A stretch of 64,000 nt of DNA from Cladosporium halotolerans. Its lineage: Eukaryota. The stretch lies in contig NW_027191453.1 in the NCBI RefSeq assembly GCF_011745625.1, positions 992,001-1,056,000 of the forward strand, in the 5' to 3' direction. A program made the translations under genes and the position numbers. Under the pieces are notes generated by a model. The model made no database searches. It was not told the origin of the DNA and saw only the letters and a program-made list of their open reading frames with translations. Position 1 is the stretch's first letter, and the number at the start of each line of letters is the position of its first letter. Of this stretch, positions 8,562 to 46,700 are shown in pieces.

Positions 8562-8602
8562 CAGCAGCCCACAGCAGCCCACAGCAGCCCACCGCAGCCC
8601 AC
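8562..8602. repeat. 10-bp tandem repeat (cagcagccca), 4 copies
   Basis: cagcagccca cagcagccca cagcagccca ccgcagccca c is directly visible. Confidence 0.9.
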
Positions 8603-20709: not shown

Positions 20710-23700
20710 TCACCCCCTGGACGGCGAGTTGGCACCCCGAGGAGTCGGGTCGGGATCGAGCTCGCCGCCGCTGCCGCCGCCGGTGGGAGTCAGCGTGGCT
20801 GGCCGGGGGGTCGCGTCGAGGTCAGTCTCCGTGCCGCCGGAAGGCGTGCTCAGCAGACCACTGCCGTCCGCGTCCTGCACGACCACCGTCGACTTGTCGC
20901 CCGGCGCCTTGGGGAAGACGACGGGCGGCGTCAGGTGGCCGGAGCGCTCGACTTCACCGGCGCTCAAGTTGTCGTCCAGCTCGTGCTCCTCCTCCTTGAT
21001 CGTGCCGGCTTCCTCGACGCCGCCCTCGGCCGCGCGGGCGGAGCTCTCCTTCAGCGCCGCGATGTCTTCGTTAGAGATCACGCTGCCTTGCGAGTTGGTG
21101 CGCATCATCTCGATGCCGAGACGGGAGGCACGCTTCTCTTTGCGCTGGCGCGCGGGCGAGCGGTAGCGCACGTGGCTGCTGTGGCCGAGCTCTTCGTCTT
21201 CGTCGTCGCCGCTTTCGGCTGCGGATTCTTGGCGGACTTTCTCGAGAGAGCGCCGTTTGGCTTCGATGGCTTCCGTCGAAGGTTGCTTGCGAGGTGCGCG
21301 GTGTTCTGTGTCTTCCGTTGGTGTCTCGAGAGCAGCAGGCGCGGAGCTTTGGGGGCTGAGTTGAGCTGGTGGCGGCGAGAGGCTGGACTTTTGCTCGGGC
21401 TCGGCCGTAATGTTGCTGTTGTTGGAGATGCCCAAACCACCGAAGTTGCGCTCAAGGTCAGAGTCTGTGTACTCGAGTGTAGGCTGGCGGCTAATAATGC
21501 GAGGAATGCTGTCAACCCGAGAGCCAATCGAGCTGACTGACCCGATCGAGTTCTCGCGCTCCGAGAACGTCGTCCATGCTGTCGACGCCGTGCCGTCCTT
21601 GTTGGAAGACACGTTCGTGCTTGTGGGACTGCAAGCGTCAAGTGAGCCCGAATGTGTCGCAGGCCGTAGCTGCGATAGAGGGAACGACTGCCCTTGCGAG
21701 TTCGGTCTCCAGCCCTCTGGCGCCGGCTTCCACTGGCACAGCCTGCCCATGACTTCCTCGAGCTTTTCTCTGGTCGGCGGCTTCTCCACCAGGGCATCGA
21801 AATGGTGGGGCGCTTGAAGATCCTTCAGATAACCAGTGACTGCAACAATAGGTGTATGGGAGTTTGCGATCTTAGTGTCTCTGATCATGCGAGCCACATC
21901 CGCGCCGTTGACTTGAGGCAGCTTGTACTCCATCATGATGATATCGTATTTGATGTCGCTGCTAGCGTAGCGGAGAGCGTCACGCCCGTTGGTCACAGTG
22001 ATGGTTCGGCAGCGCAGCTTCTCCAGTAGACGTTCCATAACCAGACGCGAGACTGGATGATCCTCGCAAACAAGCACATCGAGCGTGCGGAAACTGGGGC
22101 CGTCTCCGAGGCTGACCTGAGAAGATCTCCTTAAGCTTTGGCGACGCCTTTGTACCCGCAGCAGAGCGTTTTGGCGACTGTCCTCATTGTCGGAAGACGA
22201 CGGCGAGACATTGAACACGCCGCTCCGACGTTTGTGATGACTTGGCATGAGCTCTGGAAGCAGATCGCCATCCTGTGATCCAATGGTGTGTGATCTCTGC
22301 CGGGCGGGTGACGAACTGCTCGCCTGCCTTTGCCTGGCCAACTCTTGCGTGATTTGGCTGGCACCAGATTTGTTGACCTTGATCGGCGAAGGCGTTCCTG
22401 ACATCTTGAATCCTCCAGGTAAACGAGGAGGTCCTTGCTCGAAAAAGTTGCCAGGCTGTAGCGACGAATTGCTTTGCTGCAATTGTTGCGAGATACCTGA
22501 GGCTCCGCTGGAAGTCTTCCTCCGTTCGTGGTTGTTGCCTGCGCTGAACGAGACTAGCAATGGAGATGATGGCTGTGAAGCTCGGCTTGGGGAAGAGTTG
22601 GCGTGGCTGAGCAAAGACGGCGACTGTGACCGCTGGTGTCCCTTGTTAGAAGACAGAGTACGCTTCAGAGGACCCGGTGCTATCGGGCTGGATTCGAGAG
22701 ACGGGCCTGGAGAGGACGAAACCGCCGGCGAAGAAACGCCAACGCCCGCCGCAGTCTTAGCCTGAGCTTGCATGGCGTCTGCTCGCAATTTCTGGATGAC
22801 ATCTTTGTTCGCCTTTTCGAGAACAGGCAAGTTCTTGTACTGAAACGCGCCAAAGTCATCCGTCACGGCCGGTTCACTGAGCCTGCGCGCACGGTGGTCT
22901 CGAACGTGAGGTGGGATGTGCAGGGGCATGAGATTACGCTTAACAGCGGCGTTGACCTGACTTCTGACTCTGGAGAGCGCATCGTGTGGACGGTCGGGAT
23001 AGTCAGCGCCAGGCGTGCCCGTGGGGGATGACGATTGATCTTCGAACTCCGCGGCGAAGTTCTGCATTGTGGCGCCACGGGCATCGAAGTACTCGGTATC
23101 CTCTGGGTTCTCAGCCGCAGGAATGAACGCTGCTTCATCGTCTCGCAGCGTGTCCCAATTGATCTCTGAAAACCACGGGTGGGCTTTGATCTCGTCACCA
23201 CCGCTAGGGTACTTGTCTTCTTTGTTCGAGCCAAGACGCTCCTTCGGGTCAAGACAAAGTAGCTTATTGATCAGATCCTTCGCATCCTCGGAGGCAAAGT
23301 CTTCATCCTCATCCTCAGGCCACTGAATGTTGCGGGCGAGGATGTTCTTGAATACCTCATCCGGCGTGTCCGCGTTGAAGGGTGGTCGTCCGTACAAGCA
23401 CTCGAAGATGATGCAGCCGAGTGACCACCAATCGCTCATTTCGTCTTGGCCGGAGCCGTTGATGGTCTCAGGCGCAAGGTAATCGGGCGTACCCACGAAT
23501 CGCCTGCTGCTATCTTGCGGATCGAAAAGCGCCATCATTGGGGGTGGCATAGTGGATTGCTGAGGAGGCGTTTCTACACGCCCTGATTGACTTGGCACAG
23601 GCTGCAGTCCGTACGGATCGGGTGATTCAGCCGCTTCTTCGTCGGCCGCTTCTTCCTCGATCGGAGAACGTCCGTCAGCGACAGAGAATCGTCGGAACAT

Positions 23701-26700
23701 AGATGCTAGCGCTTCGCTGTCTCCGCTGTCGCTTCGTTGTCCAGAGGTACGCCGCGAAGGCTCACGGGAAGGTTCACGGTTTAGACTGAAGTATGAGGGC
23801 TGCGACATCTCTGGGTATGGTGTCAGGGCTGGAGTTTGGCCAGGAGAATTGTTCCCGGCGTGGAAATCGAAGGAAGTAGATCTAGAAGAGGTAACAGATG
23901 GCGCCCTCTTGAAAGGTCCCTGTTTGAGGAGATCCGGTGGTACATCGCCCGGTTTGGCGTTGAGCACTCGCTTCTGACGTCCGATCATACCCATGCGCGA
24001 TAGTCCAAAATCCGTGAGCTTGAGGTGGCCTTTAGATTCGATGAGCAGATTGTCGGGTTTGAGATCACGGTGGACGATCTGCCGAGCGTGCAAATGCTGC
24101 ACGCAGAGCACGACCTCCGCCATGTACTTTTGCGTCCAGTCCTCGGGCAAAGCGCCAAGGACCTTGATAAGGGATGCACAGTCGCCACCGTTGAGATATT
24201 CCATCACGAGGTAGAGGTAGTCTTTACTCGAAAAAGTCCAGTAAAGCTTGGCAACGAAATCGCTCTCGCCTTGCCACATCATGATAGCTCGCTCAGCCTT
24301 GACGTTGGTGACCTGGTTCTTGGCAACCATATCCCCCTTCTTCAATACCTTAATGGCGTAGTAGTCTCCCGTCGACTTCTTCTTCGCGAGATATACACTG
24401 CCGAATGCACCCTTACTAATGGGCTTGATGATTTCGAAGTCCTTGATAGAAGTCTGTACAGCGCGAGGTTGAGGTACAGTTGAAACAGCTGAGAGTCGAG
24501 GAGACGAAGGTCTACCAAGTGCGTCCGATAGTGCCGCGGAAGATTGTCGACGGTGGTGGTGTGTGTGCTGGGCTCTGATGACGGGGGATGTGAATTCGCT
24601 AGTCGTTAAAATGGGCGAGGCGATAGGCGAGGGCACACTATCCGCGGTGCTAGACATCCGTGGTCTCGACATTCTAAGAGGAGATGACGGTCCTGGAGGC
24701 ACTCTCGCCGGTGATTGGTGCCGACTAGAAGCAGACAAGCTTGGGAGTACGAGGCTCTTGCGCTTTCGCTCACGTGATCTATGGCTTGCCATCCGGCTCA
24801 AGCTGAGGTCGGCTCCAGGAGAGTCCGAACGCCTGTAGCTGCCAGACGCGATGGAGGAACGCACACTGCCGTCACTCTCTGCACCTGTATCGCTCTCCAA
24901 AGCGATTGAACCTCGCTTGTGGAAGTGATACGGTTCCGAAGTTGATGGTGCGCCGCCATGGGATTTTGGTGTGATCGCGCCTGCTTGAGGGCTGCTTGCT
25001 CGAGATGAGCCTGCTGGTGATACTTGTCGCGAGAGATTTGGATCCGGGCTGTTGCGAAGTGCCATTGCCATTGCAGAGGTCGAGGGTGGTCGTGGGTATG
25101 AACCGGACATTGACGAGACCTCTGACATGAGATCCGGCTCAGACGGCGGACCTGGGACCTGTGGTGTTTGCATCGGCACCGGGCCTTGAAGATTCTCAGA
25201 GCTCTCGCTAGAGTCGCTGATCTCTCCAGCAGCAATACGTGCCGCCTTCTCCATCGCCGCCTCAATGCATTCCTGAACCAAAACGTCGTACTCAACTCTG
25301 ATGCGCTCCGAGTACTCCAGAATTTGCCGGTGGCGGAAAACCGCATCTACCTTTGTTCGTGCCAATTGCGAGGTCTCTTCGCACAGCGCAGCGAGACCCT
25401 GCTCATTTTCGAGAGAAGTCGCGCTTGGTGACTGCCACTGCAAGACCTGCTGGATCCGACCCTCGGATTGAGGAGACAATGTTCTCATTTCACCAGGAGC
25501 CCAATTCTTCGTGTCTTTGATTGCCGGTGTGCTGATTTCCATGACAGTGTCACACAAGTCCATGACTAGCTCCACGATCCGTGCCAGGGGTCTACGCACG
25601 GCGAACGAGCGAGCACGGCTATGTCCAAATCCAGTGCGCGAAGAGTCCCTAGAACGATTCTGGACTGCAGGGGAAGCTCGGCCAGAAGAAGGGTTCGATG
25701 GAGGATTCGAAGATGATCCGATTGGCATGCCTTTGTACTCTGCTGTAGGCGCTGGTGCAGGCGAACCCTCATCTGACGTGGCACTTTTTGCGCGGGCTTG
25801 AGCTTCCAGGGCGTCAAGCACTTTCACAATGGCACCTCGTTGCTCGTTTAGCGACTCTTGAGCCATTTGGACCTCCATCTCGGCATGATGTTCTTGAGAG
25901 CAAAGTTCCGTGTGCTTCTCAAACCACCAGGGTGTGATTTGGCGTTCACAAAGTCGACAAAGAATCGGCATGGGGGGCGGGTGGCTTCCAGGGTCGTTTA
26001 CTCCAACGTCGGCAAGAAGAGTAAGGTAATTGGCCAGAATCTCCGCACCAATTCCAAGAGAATCGACGAGCACGGGAGGGAGGTCGATGGTGATCTCGCG
26101 TGAGATCACAGGCTTGATCATCCACATAGTATGGCTCTCTTCACCTGTAGTACGGTCGTAGACCAACATGCCCTGGGCTTCGAGATCGACGGCCTGGGGC
26201 TTCTCGTCCGGCTCTTGTTCTGGCTTGGCGGCTTTCTCCTCCTCGTTACCCTCATCTTGTACCTCTTGATCAGTGGACATTTCGTTCTCGTCCTTGATCG
26301 GCTTCTCCTCAGCATTGGGTTTCAAATCATTCAACGAATCTGGCTTAGGCTCTGCCTCTGTCGCTTCCACGGTTTCCCGGTCGGTCCAAAAGTTGTCCGG
26401 CAGCTTCACGGCAAACCTAATAATCTTGCTTTTCGAGTCGTCCTGGCGAATGGCATCGACGCAATCGGAGAAAACGGTTGGATTGTCGACCAACATTTCG
26501 CTGATCGGCTTACCGATAAGGCTAGCCGCGGGGTGTCCGGTGAGCTCCTGCCACGACGGGCTCACCCAGCGTACTTTGCCCTCCAGATCCAGCTCCAGCA
26601 TGGCGTTCATCGACTGCTCGGCAGCCTTCTTCAGATCCTCCCGCTCCTCGCGAATGTCCATGCTTATCGTCCGCTCCATCGGTGTCCTGTTCTGGCCTTC

Positions 26701-26778
26701 CCGCGCGGCGTCTTCTTTGATCGCCGCCACGGCAGGCGGCACAAGCATGCCCTGCTGCTGGGGCGGTGCGTCGGCCAT
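20710..26778 (-). CDS. RIM15: Rim15/Cek1 (Greatwall-like) Ser/Thr kinase with PAS, C2HC, split kinase and receiver domains, ~2022 aa, intronless
   Basis: Kinase motifs KPISKGAFGSVY, HRDLKPDN, DFGLS and, after a long insert, FVGTPDYLAPE. CRLCERQITPWWFEKHTELC zinc finger, N-terminal PAS-like region, C-terminal receiver (VLVCEDHPVSR). First in-frame ATG at 26778. Confidence 0.95.
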   Translation of the reverse strand: MADAPPQQQGMLVPPAVAAIKEDAAREGQNRTPMERTISMDIREEREDLKKAAEQSMNAMLELDLEGKVRWVSPSWQELTGHPAASLIGKPISEMLVDNPTVFSDCVDAIRQDDSKSKIIRFAVKLPDNFWTDRETVEATEAEPKPDSLNDLKPNAEEKPIKDENEMSTDQEVQDEGNEEEKAAKPEQEPDEKPQAVDLEAQGMLVYDRTTGEESHTMWMIKPVISREITIDLPPVLVDSLGIGAEILANYLTLLADVGVNDPGSHPPPMPILCRLCERQITPWWFEKHTELCSQEHHAEMEVQMAQESLNEQRGAIVKVLDALEAQARAKSATSDEGSPAPAPTAEYKGMPIGSSSNPPSNPSSGRASPAVQNRSRDSSRTGFGHSRARSFAVRRPLARIVELVMDLCDTVMEISTPAIKDTKNWAPGEMRTLSPQSEGRIQQVLQWQSPSATSLENEQGLAALCEETSQLARTKVDAVFRHRQILEYSERIRVEYDVLVQECIEAAMEKAARIAAGEISDSSESSENLQGPVPMQTPQVPGPPSEPDLMSEVSSMSGSYPRPPSTSAMAMALRNSPDPNLSRQVSPAGSSRASSPQAGAITPKSHGGAPSTSEPYHFHKRGSIALESDTGAESDGSVRSSIASGSYRRSDSPGADLSLSRMASHRSRERKRKSLVLPSLSASSRHQSPARVPPGPSSPLRMSRPRMSSTADSVPSPIASPILTTSEFTSPVIRAQHTHHHRRQSSAALSDALGRPSSPRLSAVSTVPQPRAVQTSIKDFEIIKPISKGAFGSVYLAKKKSTGDYYAIKVLKKGDMVAKNQVTNVKAERAIMMWQGESDFVAKLYWTFSSKDYLYLVMEYLNGGDCASLIKVLGALPEDWTQKYMAEVVLCVQHLHARQIVHRDLKPDNLLIESKGHLKLTDFGLSRMGMIGRQKRVLNAKPGDVPPDLLKQGPFKRAPSVTSSRSTSFDFHAGNNSPGQTPALTPYPEMSQPSYFSLNREPSREPSRRTSGQRSDSGDSEALASMFRRFSVADGRSPIEEEAADEEAAESPDPYGLQPVPSQSGRVETPPQQSTMPPPMMALFDPQDSSRRFVGTPDYLAPETINGSGQDEMSDWWSLGCIIFECLYGRPPFNADTPDEVFKNILARNIQWPEDEDEDFASEDAKDLINKLLCLDPKERLGSNKEDKYPSGGDEIKAHPWFSEINWDTLRDDEAAFIPAAENPEDTEYFDARGATMQNFAAEFEDQSSSPTGTPGADYPDRPHDALSRVRSQVNAAVKRNLMPLHIPPHVRDHRARRLSEPAVTDDFGAFQYKNLPVLEKANKDVIQKLRADAMQAQAKTAAGVGVSSPAVSSSPGPSLESSPIAPGPLKRTLSSNKGHQRSQSPSLLSHANSSPSRASQPSSPLLVSFSAGNNHERRKTSSGASGISQQLQQSNSSLQPGNFFEQGPPRLPGGFKMSGTPSPIKVNKSGASQITQELARQRQASSSSPARQRSHTIGSQDGDLLPELMPSHHKRRSGVFNVSPSSSDNEDSRQNALLRVQRRRQSLRRSSQVSLGDGPSFRTLDVLVCEDHPVSRLVMERLLEKLRCRTITVTNGRDALRYASSDIKYDIIMMEYKLPQVNGADVARMIRDTKIANSHTPIVAVTGYLKDLQAPHHFDALVEKPPTREKLEEVMGRLCQWKPAPEGWRPNSQGQSFPLSQLRPATHSGSLDACSPTSTNVSSNKDGTASTAWTTFSERENSIGSVSSIGSRVDSIPRIISRQPTLEYTDSDLERNFGGLGISNNSNITAEPEQKSSLSPPPAQLSPQSSAPAALETPTEDTEHRAPRKQPSTEAIEAKRRSLEKVRQESAAESGDDEDEELGHSSHVRYRSPARQRKEKRASRLGIEMMRTNSQGSVISNEDIAALKESSARAAEGGVEEAGTIKEEEHELDDNLSAGEVERSGHLTPPVVFPKAPGDKSTVVVQDADGSGLLSTPSGGTETDLDATPRPATLTPTGGGSGGELDPDPTPRGANSPSRG

Positions 26779-28226
26779 GCTCGCGGGCGTGGGTGGTGGT
26801 CGTGCGAATGTTCCGAGGGTATCTCCGGCCGCGTGTCTGGGTGTCCCGGAGGAGCAGACCAAAGGAAGCGGTGCTACGCCCGTCTGGCAGGCAGGCCCAT
26901 CGTGACGCGGGATCAGGATGGACGGTGCGTAAGAGGGCACGACGCGGCGTGCGAGCGAGCGGTGGGCGCAGTGCGGGCAAGACCTCGATGTCTTACACAA
27001 AGAACGTCGGGGCGGAGGACGGCAGTGGGTACGTCCGGGCTTGCGAGAGCGCGCGTGGGGCGGCGGGACGCCGGGCAGAGGGATTGGCGGCGCTCTGGCG
27101 GGAGGCAATGCACACGAGTGCGGCGGTATGCGACTGCGCGGTGGGAGGGCCGGTGTCGAGTGAGGTCGGAAAAAAAGAAGGACGGCTCGCGGCGAGAGCG
27201 TCAGGTGGACACGGCCTGGCAGCGGTCGGCGTGCAGTGTGCTGTGCTGCGGTAGGAAGGCTAGAGGCGCGCGCTACGTCGACCCCGCATTTATTAGCTGC
27301 TTTAACGTGCTCGGGACGGGCGGGCAGCAGCAGCACGGGCAGATAGCGATGGCTACTTGTCTCGCGAGTCGAATGATGGCAACGGAGCAACAGGTACGGG
27401 TGGACTTGATATTGGAGAGTTCGCGAGGCTCGCAGGCTGCCTGGGCCTACTTATCGCCTGGCCCATCGCCCATTGCCAGCTCTCGCGCGGGTGGACCGCT
27501 CGTGCAGCCACGGCACGTCTATCGCCTCGTCAACAGCCAACCTGCGCTCGGTGTGACCCCTGCTCGCTTTGCCTGGGCCAGCATTCTTCTGCACTTTATC
27601 GTTTCATGTCCGCCCGCCCATCCCGGCCGCGCCGCTCAACCACCAAGGCCGCTCTGCACGTCGGCGCCGTGCGAGCAGTCGACCGGCTTCGAGAAGAAAA
27701 CGCACGGCTCCCGCGCACGACCGGCATGTGCTCGTGAGCCTGTCATTCCCTGCTGTGCTTCGACGAGGCGTCCGTGACTCAGCCACCAAAAGGGCCCTGC
27801 CGTCAAAACAAACATCCAACTCTCGTGCTCACGCAGATGACTCTCGCCTGGACAGACTTGCATTGTAGATCTCTTCGGTCTGCCGTGTTCGCCGCGTAGC
27901 TGGATCGTAGCGGAAGCACGGCTGCGATCCTTGCCCTTGACGCAGACTTCTGGACACCTCCGGAACACGGCTGTGACGGCTATTGTGGATTGCTAAGCAA
28001 CGTGCGTGACAGACATAAGCTTCGAAGGAATGTTGGACAACAACGCCAAAAGGCTGTCCCGAATTCTGGTTTCCTATGACAGAAACAGTTCGCGAAAATC
28101 TTCTGTGAGTGTTCGCTTCGGCTGACCTACACTTTGCGTTTGTTTGACAAAGATTTGTGGTACTGCAAAATCAAGAAAAACCGCATCGGTCAAAACATCC
28201 CATCTCCAGCTGCTTCCTCTATACCC

Positions 28227-32866: not shown

Positions 32867-33790
32867 ATGGGCGACAAAGACATAGTCGAAAAAGACGCTG
32901 GGGAGGACCCAAGCCGTGTTTCCACCATCGAGCATGTTCGCGAAGGAGAGCGCCCGGACTTTTCGAAACCCCTGCCGCGACAAAAGCTGCCCGCCGATTT
33001 GCAGAAAACCTTCGAAAACGACGAGACCTGGTGGAGCGCGTTCTACGAGGGCAACGCGCAAGAGTCTACAGAGTCCAGCGTCCGTTATGCCGCCTACGCG
33101 TCCCGTTTCCGAACCATCCTTCTATCCGCGCACCGCTATGTCGCATACACATCAGATATCGGAGAGAGCTTCAGGCCGATTGCACACCCAATCGCGGTAC
33201 GAGCGGCATACGGTGTTTCGTGGACGTACCTGATCGGTGATGTGGGCTATGAAGGATACAAGGCATACCTCCGCAATCAACGCTCGCTTCACCCTGAGAA
33301 CCAGGAGGGTACGAAGGAGCTCTCCACAACTTCTACCGACAAGGGATCCGCGAAGGTCGGAGAAAGCAGGTCGCTCGGCGCCGGAATCACCGGTGACAGC
33401 ATCGCAAGCCAGCAGCCCGAGGGTCGCGTCGTGCCCATCGAGGACTACCGCACGGTAATGGCACAGCGAGCACTCTTCCAGGGCGTAGCCTCGATGGGTT
33501 TGCCCGCATTCACTATCCACAGCATTGTCCGCTACTCCGGCCGTGCGTTGAAGAATGCGAAGAACACGCGAATTCGCACGTGGGGACCTATTGGTCTTGG
33601 TCTCGCGGCTGTACCTGCTCTGCCCTACATGTTCGATGAGCCAGTGGAGAAGGCGACAGAGTGGCTATTCCACAAGGCGTTCGAGACCATCGGCGGACCC
33701 GACGCCGTTCGCGCGACTCCTGTGACTGGTCAAACAGCGATGAGGGAGCTGTCGACTCAGCAGAACAGGCAGAAGGAGAAAGAGCTGTAA
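32867..33790 (+). CDS. MTFP1: Mitochondrial fission process protein 1 (MTP18 family)
   Basis: RYVAYTSDIGESFRP, AYGVSWTYLIGDV, FQGVASMGLPAFTIH and GLGLAAVPALPYMFDEPVE. Single 307-aa ORF. Confidence 0.88.
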   Translation: MGDKDIVEKDAGEDPSRVSTIEHVREGERPDFSKPLPRQKLPADLQKTFENDETWWSAFYEGNAQESTESSVRYAAYASRFRTILLSAHRYVAYTSDIGESFRPIAHPIAVRAAYGVSWTYLIGDVGYEGYKAYLRNQRSLHPENQEGTKELSTTSTDKGSAKVGESRSLGAGITGDSIASQQPEGRVVPIEDYRTVMAQRALFQGVASMGLPAFTIHSIVRYSGRALKNAKNTRIRTWGPIGLGLAAVPALPYMFDEPVEKATEWLFHKAFETIGGPDAVRATPVTGQTAMRELSTQQNRQKEKEL

Positions 33791-34098: not shown

Positions 34099-34593
34099 CT
34101 AGACGCCACCGAGAAGGCCGGTAACCTTGCCAGCATCCGGGAGATTTCCCTGGAAGAGCGTAAGTTTTAGCCAATAGCTTTGATATCACAAAGGACACAA
34201 GCGTACCGCAGTGGGGAGTGAGGGCAGCTGGGGCTGAGCGTCGCGCTTCACGCCTCCGGTGAGACCAGTCACTGTACCAGTGACGCCGGAAAGGCTTCCC
34301 TAAGAAGTGTCAGCTTGTGGCAAGAAGTAGCCCGCACACAGACACACGACATACCGCTGCGGGAATCGAAGGCAATTGAGGTTTGGCATCGCGCTTCAAA
34401 GCACCACCAAGACCTGGCGCACTGCTGAGGAGGGACGTTGGATTGCTCTGTTTGGGGTTTAGAAGCTGCGAGCAAGAGTGAAGCTTTGCTGTCGTACCAG
34501 GGGAAGAGCGGGCACCTGAGCCTCTGGCTGTCCGATGGGCGCAGCCAAGATGCCGGTAGACAAGGCGAGGAGAAGCAGGGATACGGTCTTCAT
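34099..34593 (-). CDS. Small secreted Kex2-processed repeat protein (KEP-like peptide precursor), 110 aa
   Basis: Exons 34498-34593, 34355-34447, 34207-34299 and 34099-34149 with three phase-0 GT-AG introns give MKTVSLLLLALSTGILAAPIGQPEAQVPALPL|SNPTSLLSSAPGLGGALKRDAKPQLPSIPAA|GSLSGVTGTVTGLTGGVKRDAQPQLPSLPTA|GNLPDAGKVTGLLGGV*. A TATATA element lies ~90 nt upstream (34682-34688). Confidence 0.88.
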
Positions 34594-35547
34594 GTTTTCG
34601 AGGCAATGAACGGAATGTGAGGTCAAATGGTGTAAAGTGGTAGGTTGATATACATTGTGTTCAAGGAACACGGCGTACGAGATATATAGGCGGCCTGCCT
34701 TCACATATCGAGAGGCGCTGCTCAGTGGAAAGCATGTCCACCCTCGAGGCTCGATCGCATCAACCAGGCGAAACTTTGTTGGAGCTTTACAGCATAGCCA
34801 GAAATAAGTATGGCGCCACCGGATCTCCCCAATTCAATGCAGCCGCATTTCGGTGGCAACTCCTCAAGAGGAGTCGAGTCTAGGTCGCCAACATGTCTCG
34901 TCGTGAGCCTATATGTGAGTCTACTATACTTTGCCCCTGGGAGTTACGCCAGGTCTGCCCTCGCACAGGTACGGGACTCCGTACAACTCACGTCGTCCGC
35001 CCAATAGTTGATCAAGCCATTCAATCGCAATATAATCCATAGAATCACCACGGCTTGTGATGACCCTAGGACTCGGTGCCCAGCATCAAAATGGTCTGTG
35101 TGATTTGCTGCGGACATTCTCAGCTCAGAGATTATAAAGTGTCCAGATAGAGCATGCTTCTCAACGCTCCTGTTGACAGTGCCTCCCTGTCTCACGAGAT
35201 GGAGGGGGCGCCACTGGGATGGCGCGGTTTGCAGCGGCTGTCATGAACGCGAGGATTCTGACCCCTTTGGGAAGAGCTTAATGGAAACAGAAATCCATGG
35301 ACCTGTCGTCGAAACGTGGGCATTCAAGACCTGCTAAACGAGCACCGTCAACTCGACTGGAATATGAGCAGGCGCGGTGTTGGCAGAAGGATTCGGTGGC
35401 GCTTTGCACAAATGATCTCGCAATTTGTGATGGTGCAAAAAGCCAGAGAAGGATGCCGGCCACGCGGTATGCGATCCTTCAGCAGGATGACGAATATTGC
35501 CTTGGGTAGCGATGGAGTCGAGACAGCATCTTTGTCGTGTACACGTC

Positions 35548-36516
35548 TCACTTCTGATTCTTCCGCATCTGGTCGAACATATCTTTCCACTGCTGGTCTT
35601 CATCGTCATCATCTTCCTCGGTGTCATCGTCGTCATGATCGTCAGCTCCCTTGACAGGCACATTCATATCGACGTCTTTGAGCATAGCGGCCACTTCAGC
35701 AACAGGAGGCAGAGTATTCGCATTTGACGAAGTAGTTGTCGGCTCGTATCCCTCGATAGCAGTAGAGCTTGAAAATTTGACTTTGCTCGCCGGTTGAGTC
35801 TGTCTAGACGATGGCGTCTTCTCAACAATGAAGTCCGCCATGACCTGGTCTGGCCTAAAACTTGCGGCAGTTTCTCCTCTCTCCAAGGCCAGTTCGCCTC
35901 TCTCCGCCACCCGCTGTTGGATCTTTTTGGAGCTGGCTTCATCGCCATCGGAGCTTTCGGCGGACATCAGATGGCGATCATTCTCGTGCAAGACAATTGG
36001 CGCTTGCTGACCGGGCACCCGTTCCCACGCAGGAACTTCAGAAAGCTGTGCTTTGATGTAAAGGCCTTTGCGGGTACACTCCTTGCTGCACCAATCGCCA
36101 TCCCCCTCCTTCAGCTTCCACGACTCAGATTCCTTGAGGTGAAGCCCACGGGGCTCGTTGGCACATAAGGGATATCCGCATCTGCTGTCTATTCGTCGTT
36201 CTTCGACCAGCTCGTCAAAGTTCGAGGGTTGAAATATGGAAACGAGCTGAAGAAATTGCGATGCATCTTGAGCTGTGGGCTGTGACGATGGCGGAAACTC
36301 CAAAAGGATTTCGATGTGGTTGAGTATTTGGCTGGACGTCTTCTTCTGATGGTCGATCAAGAGGGCATGCTTGATTGCTATATCGAAGTGGCGTTTTTTC
36401 TTTGCTGCCTCGGCGTCCGCCTCGGCCTGCGCTGCTTCGTCTGGTGGTGGCGACGTCCCAGCCGGTCTGGCCGGCTGCTTCAATATGGATTTTCCTGGCA
36501 CCTTCTTAGTTGCCAT
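35548..36516 (-). CDS. RTR1: Rtr1/RPAP2 RNA polymerase II CTD phosphatase-like protein
   Basis: FQPSNFDELVEERRIDSRCGYPLC...WCSKEC...KAQLSEVPAWER zinc-finger pattern. First ATG at 36516. Confidence 0.87.
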   Translation of the reverse strand: MATKKVPGKSILKQPARPAGTSPPPDEAAQAEADAEAAKKKRHFDIAIKHALLIDHQKKTSSQILNHIEILLEFPPSSQPTAQDASQFLQLVSIFQPSNFDELVEERRIDSRCGYPLCANEPRGLHLKESESWKLKEGDGDWCSKECTRKGLYIKAQLSEVPAWERVPGQQAPIVLHENDRHLMSAESSDGDEASSKKIQQRVAERGELALERGETAASFRPDQVMADFIVEKTPSSRQTQPASKVKFSSSTAIEGYEPTTTSSNANTLPPVAEVAAMLKDVDMNVPVKGADDHDDDDTEEDDDDEDQQWKDMFDQMRKNQK

Positions 36517-37006
36517 GATACTATGCGCCCGTGAAGACAGAGACAGAAGGTTAAGCTCGCGCTGCGACAGCACAGTCCCGTAGTCTGCAGGCTGTTCCGC
36601 GTCTGCTGCTGCTCCAAGCGTTGCTTAAGCTTCACGCGGTGCACGCGCGCAAGGGTAGCGTTGCGGAAACGTCGTCATCCGGCCCACGTTCCTGCCGTTG
36701 CCAACTCAGGCAGCTCTGGGCGGCCCTCACTTCACTCCACCAGCTCGCAACTGCCTCTTTGGACCTTTCATCCTTGTGTGAATCACGTGTGATCCCTTAC
36801 ACCACCGTTGGCCCCGCTCAAACACCCCGTCTGGCCACGAAACCGGCCTGAAACGCCGTCCAGCCAGGCAACAAGGCCAGTGCATTGGCACGCGTGGAGT
36901 TTATTGTAGGAGCTTCGTCATTCCCACCACCCCGTACAGGAGGCCCTCCACATCTCGCTCTGCATCCGCAAACCACAACAAGACGACCGCACAAACCGTC
37001 GCCGCC

Positions 37007-40000
37007 ATGGCTGGCTACAAAGTCAAGGCGCTGTACGAGTACACTAGCGAAGAGCCCGACGACCTCACCTTCCCGGTGGGCCAAGTCATTACCATCACGG
37101 AAGAGATAGACGCGGATTGGTACGAGGGAGAGTATACAGACGCCAGTGGGGCCAAGAAGGCAGGCATCTTTCCCAATAACTTCGTGGAGAAGTGCGAGCC
37201 CGAGGTTCCATCGAGGCCTAGCAGGCCTACCAGGCCAAAGCAAGAGACCCAGACACCTTCCGTGCCCGCTGCGGCTCCTGAGCCTGAACCTGAGCTTGAG
37301 CCTCAAAATGCGGCAAGAGAAGAGGACGATACCCCTCCGGTGCCGGCAGCTTCAAAGCCACAGCCGCCGCCTGTGACCATCCCCGCTGAGCCAACTAAAG
37401 CTCGGGAGGAGGTGCGCTCGCCGCCCTCCACTACTAGTGAGAGGAGCCCTGCCGCACAAGTCGAGCCTCCTCCTGCACCCAAACCGGTCCAAGCGGAGCC
37501 CGCGGCGACCGAGTCTAAGAAGCCGCCGCCGCCCGTTGCGCCCAAGTCCAATGCCTTCAAAGACCGCATTGCAGCCTTCAACCAGCCGGCGGCGGCACCC
37601 GTGATGCCTTTCCAGCCGGGTGGACAGAAGTCTCAGCCAAGCAACTTCATCAAGAAGCCCTTTGTTGCTCCACCGCCGAGCAGTTCCGCTTATGTCCCAC
37701 CACCAATTAAGCAGGAACCGCAGCAAACACATTATCGCAGAGAGGAGGACCCCGAGATCAAGCAGCGGCAGGAGGAGGATAGGGCTGCGGCCGAAGCTGC
37801 GGGTTTTCGCGATGAGACCCAACAAGAGGAGGGCGAAGAGGACGCACCGAAGCCTCAAAGCCTGAAGGATCGCATTGCCTTGCTGCAAAAACAACAGGCT
37901 GAGCAAGCCCAGCGTAGGGCTGGTGGCGGGGAGAAGAGGGAAAGAAAGCCCTCCAGGAAACCATCTGAGCCTGAACCTGAGGGTGATGACGACGAGCTTG
38001 CCCGTGTCCGTAGCCCCGGCGATGAGAGACAGAGTTTGGATGTCTCTCGTGGTCGTCCTAGGGTTCCGTCGGCTCAGAGACCTCCGCAGGAGCCCATGTC
38101 GCCCTTGCCGGATGCACCGCAGCACGAAATTCTCAGTGGCGGCGAAGAAGCCGACCAGTCAGCTGCTGGTGAGACCACAGAGGATGATGCTGGCACCATT
38201 GGACCAGAGGACAGCGACGACAAGCCCAAGCCGCCGCCTCGAATTGACACAGCGCCCAAAGAAGAGAAAGAAGTTGGCGACGAGGCGGACACTACGGAAA
38301 ATGCCGACGACGACGAGGATTCCATGGATGAAGAGACTCGGAAGCGCTACGAGTTGAGAGAGCGCATGGCCAAGATGAGCGGTGGTATGGGTATGGCCGG
38401 CATGTTCGGCCCACCTGGTGGCATGCCAATGCCTGGCAAGGGCGCCCCTAAGAAGCGCACTTCCACTAGAGACTCCGACAGGAAAGCATCTGTCGACATT
38501 CAAAGCCCTACCAGCCCTTCGAGTCAGGAGCCACCAAGGATGCCCATGATGCCTATCCCTGGGATGCAGCCTGTCCAGAGCCCTCCCGCGGATGAACCTC
38601 GCAGATCTGTTGAGAAGGAGCCCGAACCCGAGCTTGAACCGATTTCCGCGCAGAGACAGCCTGATGAGGTTCCAGATGTGGAGGATGTGAAGCCTGAGCC
38701 CCCACCGCGGGCTTCGATGACGGAGGAACGCGGTGCTCCTCCACCAGTGCCAAGAGGTAAGTGTTAACAAAGCCGAGATCTGCAAGAGCCTCTAATCAAA
38801 GCCTGGTGTCTTTGCTGCAAAGATTCCAGGTGTTTGGAAAGAGGAGGCACATGGCGCCGTTTTTCTTGCAAGTCAGGTCCATTGTGTCCAAGCTGACCCT
38901 TTATAGAGCGCCCGTTATCTCAGGCAGCTCCACCTATACCGGGTGACCGCCCTGTACCCCGTCCGCCTCCTGGCCCGCCGGCTCCTGAAACGCGACCTGT
39001 ACCGCCCCCACCGCCTCCAGCCGCTGCTGTTCCTACACCTCTTTCGCCTGGGCCGGGGTCCGAGTCTGATGATGAGATGTCAATGCACAACAGACAATCA
39101 TCTGTGCAAACTCCAATTGCGGAGACTCCTCTCTCGATCAGAACTGGCCCTCCTCCAGTGCCTCAGCAAGAAAACACTCCTCTGGTGACATCCCCGCGGA
39201 ATAAGAGGGCTTCTTACTTCAATAGCGAGGAAAGCACGCCGCAAACTTCCACCTCGGAGAAGCGGTCGAGCAAGATTCCTCCTATCCCTGGAAGCAGCCC
39301 GGCGAGTGCATCGAGGCCGCCACCTCCTCCTCCGCCGCAGACGTCTGCGCCCCCTAGCCGCCAAAGCACGGATTTGCAGGCAATGCCGATTACTGGAAAC
39401 GATGAGCGCGGCGAAAGCGACTATGAGGGCGACTACGATACGGATATCGCCTCGAGTGCAAAGCACAAAGACGCTTTGAAATCACACACGCGCGACCTCA
39501 GCATGGATGGAAGTACTACTGCCGATGACACTCCTGAGGACGTCACGTCTCCTGTTTCTGCTGCGCCTCCTCCTATCCAAAGGGCAGTTCCGCCTCCACC
39601 TCCGCAGGCTGCTCCCAGACCTCGTCAATCAATGGACACACCTCGCGCTCCACCCCCTGCGCCGCCGCAGAGAGAGATGTCTACCTCTTCGTATGGCGGT
39701 GACTATGATCCTTATCGCTACAACGATGCTAGCAAGTCACCACCTCCAGTGCCTGGTGCCGTACCTGTTGCGGCGCCACCGATCCCTCCTAGAGAATCGG
39801 AACCCGTCAAAGAGGACAGTTCAGATGATATGTACTCGGCGTCGCCTCCGAGGAAATCCATGGATCGCCCGCCTCCTCCCCCGCCCGTTCACGCTGAACA
39901 ACACGCTCCTATGCCACCCATGCCCCCGGTTTCACAACCACCTCCACCTGCTCGAGCACCACCAAGGCAATCGCTCGACGTATCGAGGAATCCCACTACA

Positions 40001-40834
40001 GTGAGGCGTTCCATGGATCAGAGCCGACCCTCCTCTGATAACGGACAAATTGCCAACGACCTCAACTTGAGCGAAGATACTCCCTGGTGGACAGCTGAGC
40101 AGCCTCTGCCGCCAGTCCTCCAAAGCCGAAGAGGCGTGGACATCCTGTCAGAGAGCGAAGAATCCAAGACATCTAAGCGTGGCGGCCGTACCATCATCAG
40201 CAAGGACATCTACGTCCTTTACATCGATTACAGCCAGACCGTCATCACCGCGCGCTACGACCCTCAGGACCCAGAGAACGTCTCCCTCGAGCAGCGCCAC
40301 GAAGCTCCTCCCGCCAAACTCCGCCAAGACCAGCTCGAGTCCTACTGGCAGCGCTTCGGCGCCAAAATCGGCGACACCGCCGCCTCTCTAGGTAACAGCA
40401 AGAAAGACAGCACGGTCGGCGACGGCACGCCCTTCGCACTCGTCGCGGACCTCATCAAGGCGCAGCCCGAGGCCCTGCACCCCGTCGGCACCCGCGCCTA
40501 CGGCGCCCTCGTCTATGCTAACCTTGCCAACGCCTCCGTCATGCAGTTCGACGAGATCCGCGCCGGCGACATCGTCACGCTGCGCAATGCCAAGTTCGAG
40601 GGCAAGCACTCCGGCCCCATGCACCAGAAGTACAAGCAGGATCTGGGCGCCGGCCACGTTGCTATTGTTGGCGAGTGGGACGGCACACGCAAAAAGATCA
40701 GGGCGTGGGAGCAGGGGAGGGAGAAGGCGAAGGTGAGGATGGAGAGTTTCCGTCTCGGCGACTTGAAGAGCGGCGAAGTGAGAGTCTGGAGAGTTGTGGG
40801 CAGGGAGTGGGTAGGCTGGGAAGGCGAGGCGTAG
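37007..40834 (+). CDS. BBC1: SH3-domain proline-rich myosin-tail-interacting protein (Bbc1/Mti1)
   Basis: N-terminal SH3 (VKALYEY...DWYEGEY...GIFPNNFV), FKDRIAAF and LKDRIALL motifs, LRERMAKMSGGMGM, and a conserved C-terminal domain (FDEIRAGDIV...SFRLGDLKSGEVRVWRVVGR). Intron 38757-38906. Confidence 0.85.
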
Positions 40835-42117: not shown

Positions 42118-43735
42118 TTAGTGGCAGCCAGTTTGGAGATCCGGGTAGTACCCGCGACTCGAATCGACGCCTTGGAAGCGGCCGATACCACTGGCAGAAT
42201 ACTGCGCGCCTGGAATGGCATCCGAGTACTCAGTCTTGACTGCGTATTGGCGCGGCTCAGTGGAGAAACGAGCATTGCTCTCGATCTTTCCGAGCGGCGG
42301 TAGTTGGGTCGGCATGCCTTCGTAGATAGTACTTGGGTAGTACTGGTATCCGCTGTGCTCATGTAGTGCAAGTCGGTCGGCGTCCGACATCACGGTTTCA
42401 ACTGGGTATCCGTCCACCGGTCCGCCGTCAATGCTTGACGAGCTGCTACCCGAGTGGCTGCCCGGGTCGCCTAGGGGTATGCCGAGGCCATAGTGGTTGG
42501 CCCGATAGCCGTTAATCCCCCCATTACCACCGCTGTAGTGACTCCCGGCACCGCGGAACCCGCCTGCATTCATGGCACCGAATGAAGCGCCGCCGGTGCT
42601 ATATCCTCCACTGGAGCCGGTCGATCCACCTCTGCCAGAAGTGCCGTTTTGACCCTCATTCTGGTAATGGCTCGGGGATCGTCCTCGGACGACGATCTTC
42701 TCACTCACGCGCTGAGCGATTTTGACCCATGACGGCGTGTCGTTTTCGCCTTTTCGTATGTCCACGAATAGCTCAACCACGAGATGAAAATACTGCTGCG
42801 AAGCACGTCTCTTCCCGTTGTTTGCGGTCGCCTGTTTGAACTGAATTCGCTCAAAAGTGTGGGTAGTCGAAGAGCCTGGGAGAGGAATGTGCGCGGCGCC
42901 ATTGCTGTTCATGTTGAACTGACTCATGGTCGGGGTCGAATCGGGCTGCGAGAGAGATGTGTCGTCCGGCTTACTCTGGAAGGGCAGAATCGGGCCGGGA
43001 GGATGACCAGTGGCATGGAAGGTGTGCATGGGAACCTGATAGACTCCGTGCGGAGATATTGTCGAATCCATCCTTCCAGTCGGCGTGGGAGAGACTTTCG
43101 TCACGTCGATCTTGTTCTTCGGGCCAGCATCGCGTTTAGGGGTATGCTGGACAAGTTCGATCGATTTGCCTTGCGAGCCGTCTACGGCAGCGGACAGGCG
43201 CATGCCCATGGCCATTACCTGCTCGGTGTGATTGTTGCGCTTGATGGTCAGGCGACCATTGCTGATGTTGGGATGAAGCTCGAAATGGCAGTTGACCGAG
43301 AAATAGTTGCGTCGGTAGCAAGTCCATTTGTCGTCAACGGTAGACAGGAAGAATCCTTTCTCGACCTTTGCATGAACTTCCGGTGTGACGGGCATGTCGC
43401 CGCAGTGGAGTTCAAGCAAGACCTCCAGATTCGGCCAGGGAAAGCTCAGGGACTCATTCTGCATACCACCGTAGGCGTGTGCGCCCGGCGTAGCCATGTG
43501 TGTTGGGCCACTAGATGGGACACCTGTCAAAGATAGGCCTGCTGCTGCGGCCGTGAGAATGCTTCGGGAAGGGTCTGCGTAGTGCGGGTAGCTCGATTGA
43601 ACACTCGGTGAGAGTGCGTTCCGAGCCAAATATGGTGAAGCGTTTGCGTACACGTCGCGATCGGTGGCATTCGTGGCGCCTGATAAAGGCGAACGCGTCG
43701 AGGGTGAGAGTATGCTTTGTGTTGAGCCGTCTAGT
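42118..43735 (-). CDS. Ndt80/PhoG-family transcription factor (main exon; 5' exon(s) and start unresolved)
   Basis: KGFFLS...WTCYRRNYF, LVQHTPKRDAGP, FERIQFKQATANNGKRRASQQYFHLVVEL and IVVRGRSPSHY. An upstream intron at 43736-43815 indicates additional 5' exon(s). Confidence 0.88.
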
Positions 43736-46700
43736 CTGTTGCGCATGTGTTAGTGCCAAGCGCCATTCAAGATAGATCTCGTGCGATCTTGCGTCACACT
43801 GTCTGTGGTACTCACATTGATGGTGCGCGTGCTCCAGTATAAGACTGAGGTACAAAAGGCTGCGCTAAAGGCACTGGGCCTGGATATGAGGGGACTACAC
43901 TGCCTGTGTAATGGTTTGCTTGTTGGTAGTTGTTGTACGCCAAGGAGGAAGCCGCGGACGAAGGGCTGGTTGAGATGGACCCGGATCCCGAGTCAGTGAG
44001 ATTCTGGGTGGCCGGATAGCTGTGTCACATGAAGCGTCAGCGTACAGCTCACAACGCGTAAGTGTATGGAACACGAAGAAGTCAAGGTCGAGAAATGCGC
44101 AACATGACGGCGTGCCACCGACATTCAGCGTTCTTGAAGCTGCAGAATTGCTGGGCTTCAACAGTCAAGAGCTGGATTGCGACATGCCATGACTGGTCGT
44201 GTGATCAAGGAGGTGAGAATCAACGAAAGAAGCGCCGGAGACACATTAGCTGTGCCGGACCATCGGCGGCAGCGTCGTGAAACGTCTGCCTGACAGCGGA
44301 GCGGCTGCTGGCGTGCACGCAGGAGAAGAGACCGGGCTATCAGGCCATGCTGCATAATGCGAAGGATGCCTTGTGGGGCGACCCATCTCGCTCAGCAGCA
44401 AATCAAAATGATAGAGTATCAAACGCTAGAAAGCCATGGCAGGTAAGAACCAATGTTTGTCTACGTACCTTCTGCCATCTGGCGCTACGTTTCGACTGGG
44501 GACGTAGCGAGGTCCGGCTGTGTTGCCAGAGGTTGCGTAGGCGAACGCTCCGGTAGACTGTTGTACGAGAGAAATGTCCCGTCGCAGCGGCTCGACCGAG
44601 CCGTTAGTGGTGTAGGATGAATGATGTGCATGTCCCGGGAATTGATCGAGAGCATCCGGATTGGACGACAGGGAGTAGTCGTTGTGCAGCGGCAGCTGCT
44701 GCTGAAGGAGCGTGCCTACATCGATACGTCAGCATTGAGCCACGAACCGCTGCAGGCAATTAGATGCACGGCGAGAATGACGCGGCGGGCTCGGGCCATG
44801 CAGAGGCTGTCTTCGCGATGGAACGATGGTGCACGTGAGACGAAACCCGGGTGCCCAACGTCACACCACATGCAAAGCCAGAAGGTTTGTCGGTAAAGTG
44901 GTACGAAGCAACAAGAGTAGAAACGAAAAGGGCCGTTTCACGCGTCGTGGCGGGGCAGCCCGTAATGACCGGTCGATGAGCGAAGAAGAGATGGCCGGGG
45001 CAGAGGAGCGAGCTAGGGGGGGCTGAGGGCTGGAGGAAGGGGATTGGACGTTTCGCGCGAGACTTGTAGGGACTTGGGCAAGGCGTGCTGCAGGTGGGAA
45101 CATGGGTCTCTGGATCGGGCTGAGCTCACCTGGTTCCATTGTCAAGGCCGAGCCCATGTATATGCGTCGTATCGCGCGCTCGTTGTCGACTCCTAAGCAG
45201 GACAGAATCGAATTGGCATCGATCGCCTTGTTCGAATAATCACCTCAGGGCCGATCTGTGCAGGCGGGAAGGCGTCTTCAGGCGGATTTGCAACGATGCG
45301 ATGGCGACTATGCCTGATGTCGTCGGCTTGGCGCGAATGGTTTCAGGCTCTCAGGCTCTCGGCTGCTGACGGGCCGCGTGCAAGTCGACAAGCGCGCGAC
45401 GAGCTAAAATGCGCGATGCTTTCGGGTGCGGAGAGGGCGCAGCGAAACAGCTGGGGGCGGCTGCGGCCCTGTTCGAGTGCGCGCGAGGCGAAGCGCTCTC
45501 AATCGCACTTTAACTCCACGCCTGGCGGCTATGCCGATGCTTCTTCCGACGTCTCCAGCTGCGTGTCTTGCAGCGTTCCCGCCTATCTGCGAGCAAATCA
45601 TTAGCAAGCCGTGCATACAGATCCTCGCCCATGCCTGCGCCTAGAAACGCCTTTCTCTGGGGAGCTGGGGCACGCTAATGCCGGGGAGTAGCAGGTGAAG
45701 GCCGCGAACAATCTCGACAGGTCGATTGTTGTGCAAGATGTCCTCTTTGAGTGGTGCTGATGCCGACATCCGGGGGTCGATGCGCGCACCGCGCCGGTCA
45801 CCTTACAGTCGTTGGAGCCGCCGCGAAGCAACTTTGAGAGACGTAAATGCTCTAGACATACCTATTCTGCACGCAAAACTCAAGGTTCGTAGGTCCAGAA
45901 AATGCCCAGGGCGTAGATCTGGATCAGTCTCGAGTGATTTTGGCTTTCGTGGATTGGGTGTAGATCGCTTGTTCTGATGGAAATGCGGTGCGATGCGTTG
46001 AATGAAGGGTGTTCAGGTAGATGAACGCTGTTCGCGAATGCAGAATCGATGCAAGAGCGTTCGACTTAAATACTTGGGGCCAGCAGACACGCTCGTCTCT
46101 TCGAACCTGAGCGTTGTCAGCGTCTCTGTCGCGCGCAATTGAAGTCAACATCGCAGTCAGCGGTAGCGTACCTTGCGTCAAACGTCAATCCAACAAAGAA
46201 GCCTCGACTCGACCTTCCGTCATATGTGACAAGCAAGCGAAACTTTCGGACAGACAATGCCGGGAGACAGGAGGTTAAAGTTTCCAGCATTCAGATTGAG
46301 AACTCAACCGCAGGAGTCCGTGATTTGCTTGAAAGAGATGGAAGATATTCCGTGACGACGGCGACCATAAGGCGGTGGGGAACGGAACCACACGCTGATA
46401 AAGGCGAGTAGGGGTATGCCGGCCTCCTGCGAGGTAGCAAGGCTGTTAGGTCAAGATCAAAGAAGCCCGCGACCCAGGTGGGCGTGATTCCCCGGCGATG
46501 CAAGATGATAGGCAACACGCTGTGGCCTACAGCCTCCGTCATAGACGCAACAAAGCAGAGACCAGCCTTGGCCGGCGCATCGACTCGAACGAAGACCGCT
46601 CTAAACCCAACACTCGCAAGCGTTCTGCAGCAGCGGTTACCGACCGTTTGGTTCAAGATGGGGCGTGGCATCAGGTCATCAGCCTCACAGCAGCAGGGCA

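Follow-up and report, generated by a model that had tools for sequence, protein, structure and literature searches.

An unannotated four-exon gene of Cladosporium halotolerans encodes a predicted repeat precursor of secreted, glutamine-initiated peptides

Can a locus over which the open reading frame (ORF) track records no gene nevertheless encode a precursor of secreted peptides? The question is raised by positions 34593..34099, on the minus strand, of a 64-kb stretch of Cladosporium halotolerans contig NW_027191453.1 (the whole stretch is hereafter the window), for which a reading of the letters alone (the sequence-only reading) had proposed a spliced product with a signal peptide and three related peptides. 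We found that the small, unannotated four-exon gene is supported as real, spliced and under purifying selection. Our preferred reading, to which we assign a probability of about 0.65, is that it is an expressed gene encoding a 110-residue prepropeptide of the type known as Kex2-processed repeat proteins (KEPs). This reading is carried by the gene model, the removal of intron 2 in RNA, the purifying selection seen when the exons are read as spliced, the way the product is built from repeats and a neighbourhood free of genes typical of ribosomally synthesised peptides that carry post-translational modifications (RiPPs).

The previously proposed coordinates and four-exon, three-intron model were reproduced exactly, with the same 110-residue product. 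The coding region (34099..34593) starts with an ATG at 34593-34591 and ends with a TAG stop at 34101-34099. Its exons (34593-34498, 34447-34355, 34299-34207 and 34149-34099; 96, 93, 93 and 51 nt) are separated by introns of 50, 55 and 57 nt (34497-34448, 34354-34300 and 34206-34150), all three in phase 0, starting with GTA[CT]G and ending with [CT]AG, and splicing yields a coding sequence of 333 nt, that is, 110 codons and a stop. In full, the introns read GTACGA..CAG (intron 1), GTATGT..CTGAC..TAG (intron 2) and GTACGC..CAG (intron 3), and their branch elements are CTAAA, CTGAC and an element of the CTAAA/CTTAC type, respectively, the match in intron 1 being weak. Because the longest exon has only 32 codons, the gene is invisible to tracks of stop-to-stop ORFs, as had been recognised at the outset, and the long ORFs that are listed over the locus (116 and 124 residues) are read-throughs of an exon into an intron.

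The spliced product begins with a predicted signal peptide (codons 1-17; 34543..34593), in which Lys2 precedes a hydrophobic core at residues 4-17 (14 residues, mean Kyte-Doolittle hydropathy 2.31). In a rule-based check, the (-3,-1) rule was obeyed after Ala17 and a cut after Ala18 was excluded by the Pro at +1; cleavage by signal peptidase after Ala17 is the likely outcome. A second hydrophobic stretch is absent, with a maximum 19-residue hydropathy of 0.89 beyond residue 20, and a glycosylphosphatidylinositol-anchored protein was considered and rejected because, by the general rules for such anchors, the C-terminal hydrophobic run is too short (the same maximum of 0.89). The signal peptide is followed by a pro-piece, AP-IG-QP-EA (codons 18-25; 34519..34542), and then by three units split between the exons: unit 1 across exon 1 (first 7 residues; 34498..34518) and exon 2 (last 17; 34397..34447), unit 2 across exon 2 (first 8; 34355..34378) and exon 3 (last 17; 34249..34299), and unit 3 across exon 3 (first 8; 34207..34230) and exon 4 (last 16; 34102..34149, ending exactly at the stop codon). 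Between the units lie two Kex2-type dibasic sites, K50-R51 (34391..34396) and K81-R82 (34243..34248), each continued by a spacer of two Ste13-type dipeptides, D-A-K-P (34379..34390) and D-A-Q-P (34231..34242). Units and spacers are identical to those previously predicted.

The units are 24, 25 and 24 residues long. All begin with Gln, and an N-terminal Q-[LV]-P-x-[LI]-P and a C-terminal G-L-x-G-G-[VL], common to the three, flank a variable middle. Units 2 and 3 are identical at 16 of 24 positions, and unit 1 matches either of the others at 7 of 24. All have a net charge of 0, a grand average of hydropathy of 0.32-0.71 and no Phe, Trp, Tyr, Cys, His or Met, in keeping with their earlier description as nearly uncharged and Cys-free; they are rich in Pro, Gly, Ser and Thr, with Ser and Thr making up 15 of the 73 unit residues. 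The only two Arg residues of the 110-residue protein are those of the KR sites, and unit 3 stops exactly where KR comes after units 1 and 2.

From this layout, a predicted route of maturation can be drawn up. The signal peptide would take the protein into the endoplasmic reticulum and be cut off after Ala17; in the late Golgi, a Kex2-type protease would cut after K50-R51 and K81-R82, a Kex1-type carboxypeptidase would trim the trailing K and R, and a Ste13-type dipeptidyl aminopeptidase would strip DA-KP, DA-QP and the pro-piece and halt at Gln-[Leu/Val]-Pro, whereupon the exposed Gln would cyclise to pyroglutamate. A start with Gln, a residue other than Ala or Pro, and then Pro would both halt the aminopeptidase and leave a cyclisable Gln. 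The predicted outcome is three secreted, linear, uncharged peptides of 24-25 residues, free of Cys and aromatic residues, with computed monoisotopic masses in the pyroglutamate form of 2242.22, 2222.18 and 2257.23 Da. This chemistry, on which the sequence-only reading had relied, is established in other systems (PMC6339444, PMC9769878). In the alpha-factor precursor, KR and then EA or DA come before each unit; Kex2 cleaves behind KR, the basic residues are trimmed off by Kex1, and XA and XP dipeptides by Ste13 (PMC6339444). Peptides from KEPs, trimmed by Ste13 and carrying pyroglutamate, were detected by mass spectrometry in Coprinopsis cinerea and Pichia; several of those from the C. cinerea KEPs 497993 and 490115 start with Q-I-P or Q-V-P, and one has 20 residues (PMC9769878). 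We suggest that Q-[ILV]-P, as a start common to KEPs without a sequence relation, may have arisen by convergence as a "stop and cap" design.

An index search returned 24 sequencing runs with part of the stretch, X20, probably the source run, containing all of it and the others 5-27% of the sampled words. We compared four of them (X1, X2, X13 and X21) at a likeness threshold of 85% and did not use the other 20 as evidence of expression or habitat. The relatives in X2, X21 and X13 are approximately 4-6% diverged from the window; over 771 nt, X21 differs by 32 substitutions and a single deletion of 1 nt. Against an expected synonymous fraction of 0.30, 10 of the 16 exonic changes in X21 were synonymous and 6 nonsynonymous (P=0.0076), the excess being stronger in the mature region, codons 26-110 (9 synonymous, 2 nonsynonymous; P=6.3e-4). 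The corresponding counts for X2, which shares most variants with X21 and is not independent of it, were 9 synonymous and 8 nonsynonymous among 17 changes in all exons (P=0.042) and 8 and 4 in the mature region (P=0.010). The changes were also sorted by frame: in exon 2, all 3 changes are synonymous in that frame and none of the 3 in either other minus-strand frame, and in exon 3, 3 of 4 are synonymous compared with 0 and 1 in the other two. From exon to exon, the frame richest in synonymous changes shifts just as the splice model requires, and the reading frame is intact in all relatives. Exon DNA is no less diverged (16/333) than intron DNA (4 substitutions and 1 indel in 162); the constraint acts on the protein only.

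Within the protein, both KR sites and both DA-xP spacers are identical in every contig that covers them (the first site, K50-R51, in X1, and both sites in X2, X21 and X13). The changes at R82 (CGC>CGT in X2, X21 and X13) and P86 (in X21) are silent only. In the pro-piece, X2, X21 and X13 carry the replacements G21A and A25P, both of which hit the second residue of a dipeptide and yield Ala or Pro, converting AP-IG-QP-EA to AP-IA-QP-EP, an unbroken four-step X-A/X-P ladder from Ala18. The ladder in the relatives supports both the Ala17 signal peptidase site and stepwise dipeptide removal, and shows the I-G step of the window allele as the odd one out. The QP-EA that the sequence-only reading had placed before unit 1 is present, but the ladder upstream of it is broken by I-G in the window allele.

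Direct evidence of splicing came from X13, the only run recorded as an RNA-Seq library (a metatranscriptome). One of its contigs, 151 nt long, joins 34299 to 34355, skipping exactly the 55 nt of intron 2, with flanks of 79 and 71 nt; the skipped sequence is bounded by CT..AC on the plus strand, that is, GT..AG on the strand of the gene. In X2 and X21, the locus lies on contigs that run through it without a break, as DNA would, and X1 could be regarded as RNA only by guess. Upstream of the gene, a TATA-like TATATAT (34682..34688, minus strand) was read 89-95 nt before the ATG, and a 280-nt contig from X1 ends at 34669, just downstream of it, which is no more than a hint of where transcription begins.

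The gene structure, too, is repetitive. The introns split the units after the seventh or eighth residue, so that exons 2 and 3 each encode the closing 17 residues of a unit, then KR and a pair of dipeptides, and the opening 8 residues of the unit that follows. The translations of these two exons are identical at 14 of 31 positions without a gap, and when one exon is run by tblastn against the window, the other is the only match below E=0.01 (E=7.6e-7); no paralogue was found in the 64 kb, the best non-self matches having E>0.01. At the DNA level, the two exons are 55% identical (51/93; 18, 23 and 10 of 31 at the first, second and third codon positions), a pattern in which third positions are randomised and second positions held and that marks the exons as an old duplication kept by protein-level selection. 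Tandem Repeats Finder does not detect the repeat, owing to the low DNA identity of the units. Introns 2 and 3 align with a score of 8 against -3.1 +/- 3.6 for shuffled sequences (z=3.1), a score reached by 2 of 500 shuffles, whereas intron 1 aligns with neither. Since introns 2 and 3 still align above the shuffles, the array has grown at least once by duplication of a module of about 150 nt made up of an exon and an intron.

This build is unusual. Each of these 93-nt, phase-0 exons carries a unit end, a KR spacer and the start of the next unit, so that the frame would survive the gain, loss or skipping of a unit. Skipping or duplication of exon 2 or 3 (34207-34447) would give one unit fewer or more, including hybrid units, with the frame kept; no isoforms with a skipped or duplicated exon 2 or 3 were seen. 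Such modular exons offer a way to evolve, or alternatively splice, peptide number, one that the available sections of the two KEP surveys (PMC6339444, PMC7329392) do not discuss.

Does the predicted product belong to a described class? The sequence-only reading had proposed an undescribed family. As a kind of precursor this goes too far, the KEP class having been published (PMC6339444, PMC7329392); only the sequence family is new. The definition of Umemura 2020 (PMC7329392) calls for a signal peptide for the endoplasmic reticulum and at least three tandem repeats of at least 8 residues, none above 100, at KR, KK, RK or RR sites, with a repeat score of 0.6, and was reported to capture 7878 KEPs in 1345 of 1461 strains, 2560 of them stand-alone and 22% with a DUF3328 neighbour. 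Our product has the signal peptide, by the rule-based check, and three units of 24-25 residues bounded by the signal peptide, the two KR sites and the C-terminus, but with unit 1 identical to the others at only 7 of 24 positions it appears borderline with respect to the three-repeat requirement. The definition of Le Marquer 2019 (PMC6339444) demands at least four fragments after cuts at KR or RR (or KK), at least three of them similar, with repeats making up at least 15% of the protein; the units account for 73 of the 110 residues. We therefore regard the gene, as judged from its predicted product, as a new orphan example of the known KEP class, at the lower edge of the published definitions.

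Several observations weigh against the KEP reading. The two KR sites give three fragments, short of the four of Le Marquer 2019, although some true alpha-pheromone precursors also fall below that cut (PMC6339444). At P4, the KR sites carry Ala and Gly. Kex2 favours an aliphatic residue at this position. The I-G step in the pro-piece of the window allele is not a standard Ste13 dipeptide, and unit 1 of this allele may retain an N-terminal extension as a result. Conservation of the KR sites is seen only among relatives with at least about 95% DNA identity, and no homologues were found beyond the near-identical DNA of the sequencing runs. As to splicing, a second 151-nt contig of X13 (34487-34637) runs 11 nt into intron 1 unspliced, with its 9 differences located elsewhere, the X1 contig (34390-34669) spans the whole of this intron unspliced, and no RNA contig lies over intron 3; of the three introns put forward by the sequence-only reading, RNA thus bears out the removal of one, shows another only as retained and does not cover the last. 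All the RNA evidence consists of single contigs with a depth of 2-3.4, from relatives in mixed samples, and carries no information on proportions. Retention of intron 1 would end translation after 44 codons. No other intron of the gene fits a branch site as poorly as this one (34448-34497), and it is also the intron that two contigs retain (X1, X13); its splicing could gate peptide production.

The orphan status was probed in several ways. Word-seeded HMMER searches of 5.8 billion clusters, with queries that were exon references extended a few codons into the flanking introns, gave 0 of 552 candidates at E<=10 among longer proteins and no candidate near the expected lengths; the window's own spliced product is missing from that collection too. 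The product of the neighbouring MTP18-family gene is represented there at 100% identity by assembly-derived sources alone, which means that the collection has no curated annotation of this genome, and the absence there says little. A full HMMER search of 1.84 billion representatives with a four-row, 31-position exon profile, which is a weak profile and to which unannotated genes are invisible, produced one match at E<=0.001 (P0001, E=1.3e-4). This 635-residue protein was rejected as a homologue: it matches only the Gly-rich positions 2-15, in five repeats, and is an unrelated repeat protein. In a metagenome scan, 133 stretches fit the pattern and one (L001) passed tblastn; the latter was likewise rejected as a chance match, its positions 2094-2141 encoding the N-terminus of a bacterial 2-oxoglutarate dehydrogenase (PF16078, E=3.5e-21). 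L001 carries W-K-R-D-A-K-P-Q-L-P by chance, and the 8-residue spacer motif alone is consequently unspecific in large metagenome scans.

Pfam gave nothing at the gathering score for the three longer exons, the ESM Atlas yielded no usable match, and six 8-residue peptide strings did not occur in a full-text literature search. The motifs had 0 occurrences in the supplements of the KEP papers, an uninformative result given that Table S2 of Umemura lists accessions rather than sequences, and a Zymoseptoria preprint (10.1101/2023.11.20.567875) names KEPs as future work only. The searches thus returned no match to a characterised family, as the sequence-only reading had expected, but they covered called proteins or prokaryote-dominated DNA, and short multi-intron genes are what gene callers miss; the orphan status is provisional.

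Which other products could the gene encode? The alternative that survives best, although we consider it improbable, has the product working uncut: a small secreted repeat protein rich in Pro, Gly, Ser and Thr, for example an O-mannosylated protein of the wall or surface or an effector, with the KR sites incidental or only partly used. The presence of only two dibasic sites with poor P4 residues fits such a protein, and the Ser/Thr content of the units resembles that of wall proteins. Set against this, conservation within the repeat is highest in the KR-DA-xP block, K-R-D-A-x-P-Q-L-P-S accounting for 9 of the 14 columns at which exons 2 and 3 agree; the last unit ends exactly at the KR position, with Arg nowhere else; and both pro-piece replacements keep or improve the X-A/X-P ladder.

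Less probable still, in our estimate, is that the gene encodes the precursor of a divergent mating pheromone of the alpha type. The product does share the layout of alpha-factor precursors, with KR and XA/XP dipeptides before the units (KR-DA-KP, KR-DA-QP), the Ste13 signature in Ascomycota is described as "generally only dedicated" to alpha pheromones, and the alpha pheromones of Dothideomycetes are diverse, comprising a type with two conserved Cys outside Pleosporales and the PYGxPxG type of Pleosporales (PMC6339444). Neither of these motifs is present in our units, which, in agreement with the earlier judgement that they do not resemble alpha-pheromones, have no Cys, Trp or Tyr. Moreover, pheromone precursors carry short, near-identical units with a lineage motif, whereas the units here are about twice as long, at 24-25 residues, and strongly divergent (7-16 of 24 identical, unit 1 being the outlier at 7). 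The same survey proposes KEPs bearing a Ste13 signature as peptide-hormone candidates (PMC6339444).

The genomic neighbourhood bears on a further alternative, and it also identifies the host. The neighbouring single-exon gene (32867-33787, plus strand) encodes an MTP18-family mitochondrial fission protein (Pfam E=1.6e-80). Among its named relatives, proteins of Cladosporium allicinum (71%) and Rachicladosporium (66%) rank first, ahead of many from further Dothideomycetes; by this comparison, the host is a Dothideomycete near Cladosporiaceae. Pfam domains further identify a Rim15-like protein with PAS, kinase and response-regulator receiver domains in a single frame of 2246 codons (20710-27450, minus strand), of a nutrient-signalling kinase type, a fragment of a MatE transporter near the locus, Rtr1/RPAP2 (35548-36624), an SH3/AIM3-BBC1 protein (36782-40834) and an NDT80/PhoG-type DNA-binding factor (42118-43749, minus strand) 8 kb from the peptide gene. 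By these assignments, the genes around the locus are housekeeping genes. No Pfam match to DUF3328, tyrosinase, methyltransferase or P450 was found in the 97 stop-to-stop ORFs of at least 140 residues across the whole window, or in the 135 ORFs of 75-139 residues between 19 and 50 kb.

Two other parts of the window drew attention. Positions 6000-10000 have a G+C content of 66-68% and a strong G-over-C skew (0.26 at 6001-8000), with microsatellite-like short arrays at 7226-7257, 7430-7474, 7638-7666 and 8562-8602. On each strand there are long, overlapping frames free of stops, and Pfam matched none of them; the stretch could hold a low-complexity gene of an unusual kind or be non-coding, GC-rich DNA. 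No ORF of at least 75 residues has a Pfam match in positions 43900-50600 (approximately 6.7 kb), which may be gene-poor or contain lineage-specific or multi-intron genes missed by ORF scanning.

That the product might be a modified, RiPP-type precursor with tailoring enzymes elsewhere in the genome is, to our minds, a slight chance. Dikaritin and epichloecyclin precursors share the KEP layout, over a fifth of KEP genes (22%) have a DUF3328 neighbour (PMC7329392), and the scan for tailoring genes extended over 64 kb only. However, that scan found housekeeping neighbours and no tailoring-enzyme match among the ORFs examined, and known cyclic-peptide precursors are without the Ste13 signature (PMC6339444). 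For a dikaritin in particular, a DUF3328 neighbour and a Tyr core are expected, and we found neither: there is no DUF3328 gene among the 232 ORFs scanned, as the sequence-only reading had held, and the units offer no aromatic residue for the cross-link. An equally slight chance attaches to a decaying or non-coding transcript that merely resembles a precursor, which would fit the retention of intron 1 in both contigs that cross it (X1, X13), the lack of a homologue in the databases searched and an exon divergence no lower than that of the introns, but is opposed by the synonymous excess in the spliced frame (P=6e-4), the intact frame in all relatives, the held second and randomised third codon positions between the exon duplicates and the removal of intron 2 in RNA.

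If the KEP reading is correct, what could the peptides do? Diffusible, exopeptidase-protected extracellular peptides that signal to self or to other organisms are the leading suggestion, at somewhat short of even odds. This is favoured on account of the Ste13 signature, an N-terminus protected by pyroglutamate and Pro3, the low copy number and the combination of conserved termini with a variable middle. A wall- or surface-associated, possibly self-assembling role ranks second, a doubtful placing that we make with low confidence, on the strength of the zero charge, the positive hydropathy, the Gly/Val/Thr-rich C-terminal halves and the non-identical units, as in Ustilago maydis Rep1. The missing Ste13 signature of Rep1 is one point against a repellent or amyloid reading (PMC6339444). 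A bolder and rather unlikely proposal is that of a lineage-specific, non-pheromone peptide system of Cladosporium-like fungi, serving either as a self or inter-kingdom signal via a receptor or as an ascomycete counterpart of the repellents that coat the hyphae of smuts. In the case of C. cinerea, knockouts of six KEP genes are reported to have no phenotype in axenic culture (PMC9769878).

With no exon above 32 codons and only two KR sites, the gene goes unseen by ORF tracks and by at least one KEP pipeline of the two published, and probably by gene callers as well. KEP surveys use annotated proteomes and thresholds of at least three dibasic sites, and the catalogue of fungal secreted peptides is therefore likely to be incomplete at its small end. 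The locus also offers three predicted peptides of defined mass and natural variants in which the ladder for processing is preserved, and, with one exon per repeat, it illustrates how precursors of this type expand. In soil and on plants, Cladosporium-like fungi are widespread, and they appear in many sequencing runs; a secreted peptide of theirs could matter for interactions.

Among known systems, the ustiloxin/phomopsin-type dikaritin precursors share with the present product a signal peptide and KR-separated repeats, but they have short Tyr cores, adjacent DUF3328 (UstYa) genes and no Ste13 signature. Rep1 of U. maydis (PMC3133707, PMC6339444) is likewise a secreted, KR-separated precursor of related but non-identical, hydrophobic, Cys-free peptides; it differs in releasing 11 peptides, in lacking the Ste13 signature and in that amyloid formation and a surface role have been demonstrated for it. 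The C. cinerea KEP peptides (PMC9769878) resemble those predicted here in being linear, released at dibasic sites and trimmed by removal of XA/XP dipeptides, with Gln converted to pyroglutamate and, in several of them, a start of Q-[I/V]-P compared with Q-[L/V]-P; unlike ours, they are from a basidiomycete, charged and unrelated beyond the first three residues, and give no lead to function. The closest counterparts appear to be the MFalpha1-type KEPs with a Ste13 signature (PMC6339444, PMC7329392), with which the product shares a signal peptide, related units separated by KR, DA and X-P dipeptides, a last unit at the C-terminus and the lack of tailoring genes nearby. In contrast to these, it has only three uncharged units, diverged to 7-16 of 24 identities, 24-25 residues long and free of Cys, Trp and Tyr, each of them split by a phase-0 intron. 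With no sequence relative, it would count as a stand-alone KEP, like the 2560 of 7878 so classed (PMC7329392).

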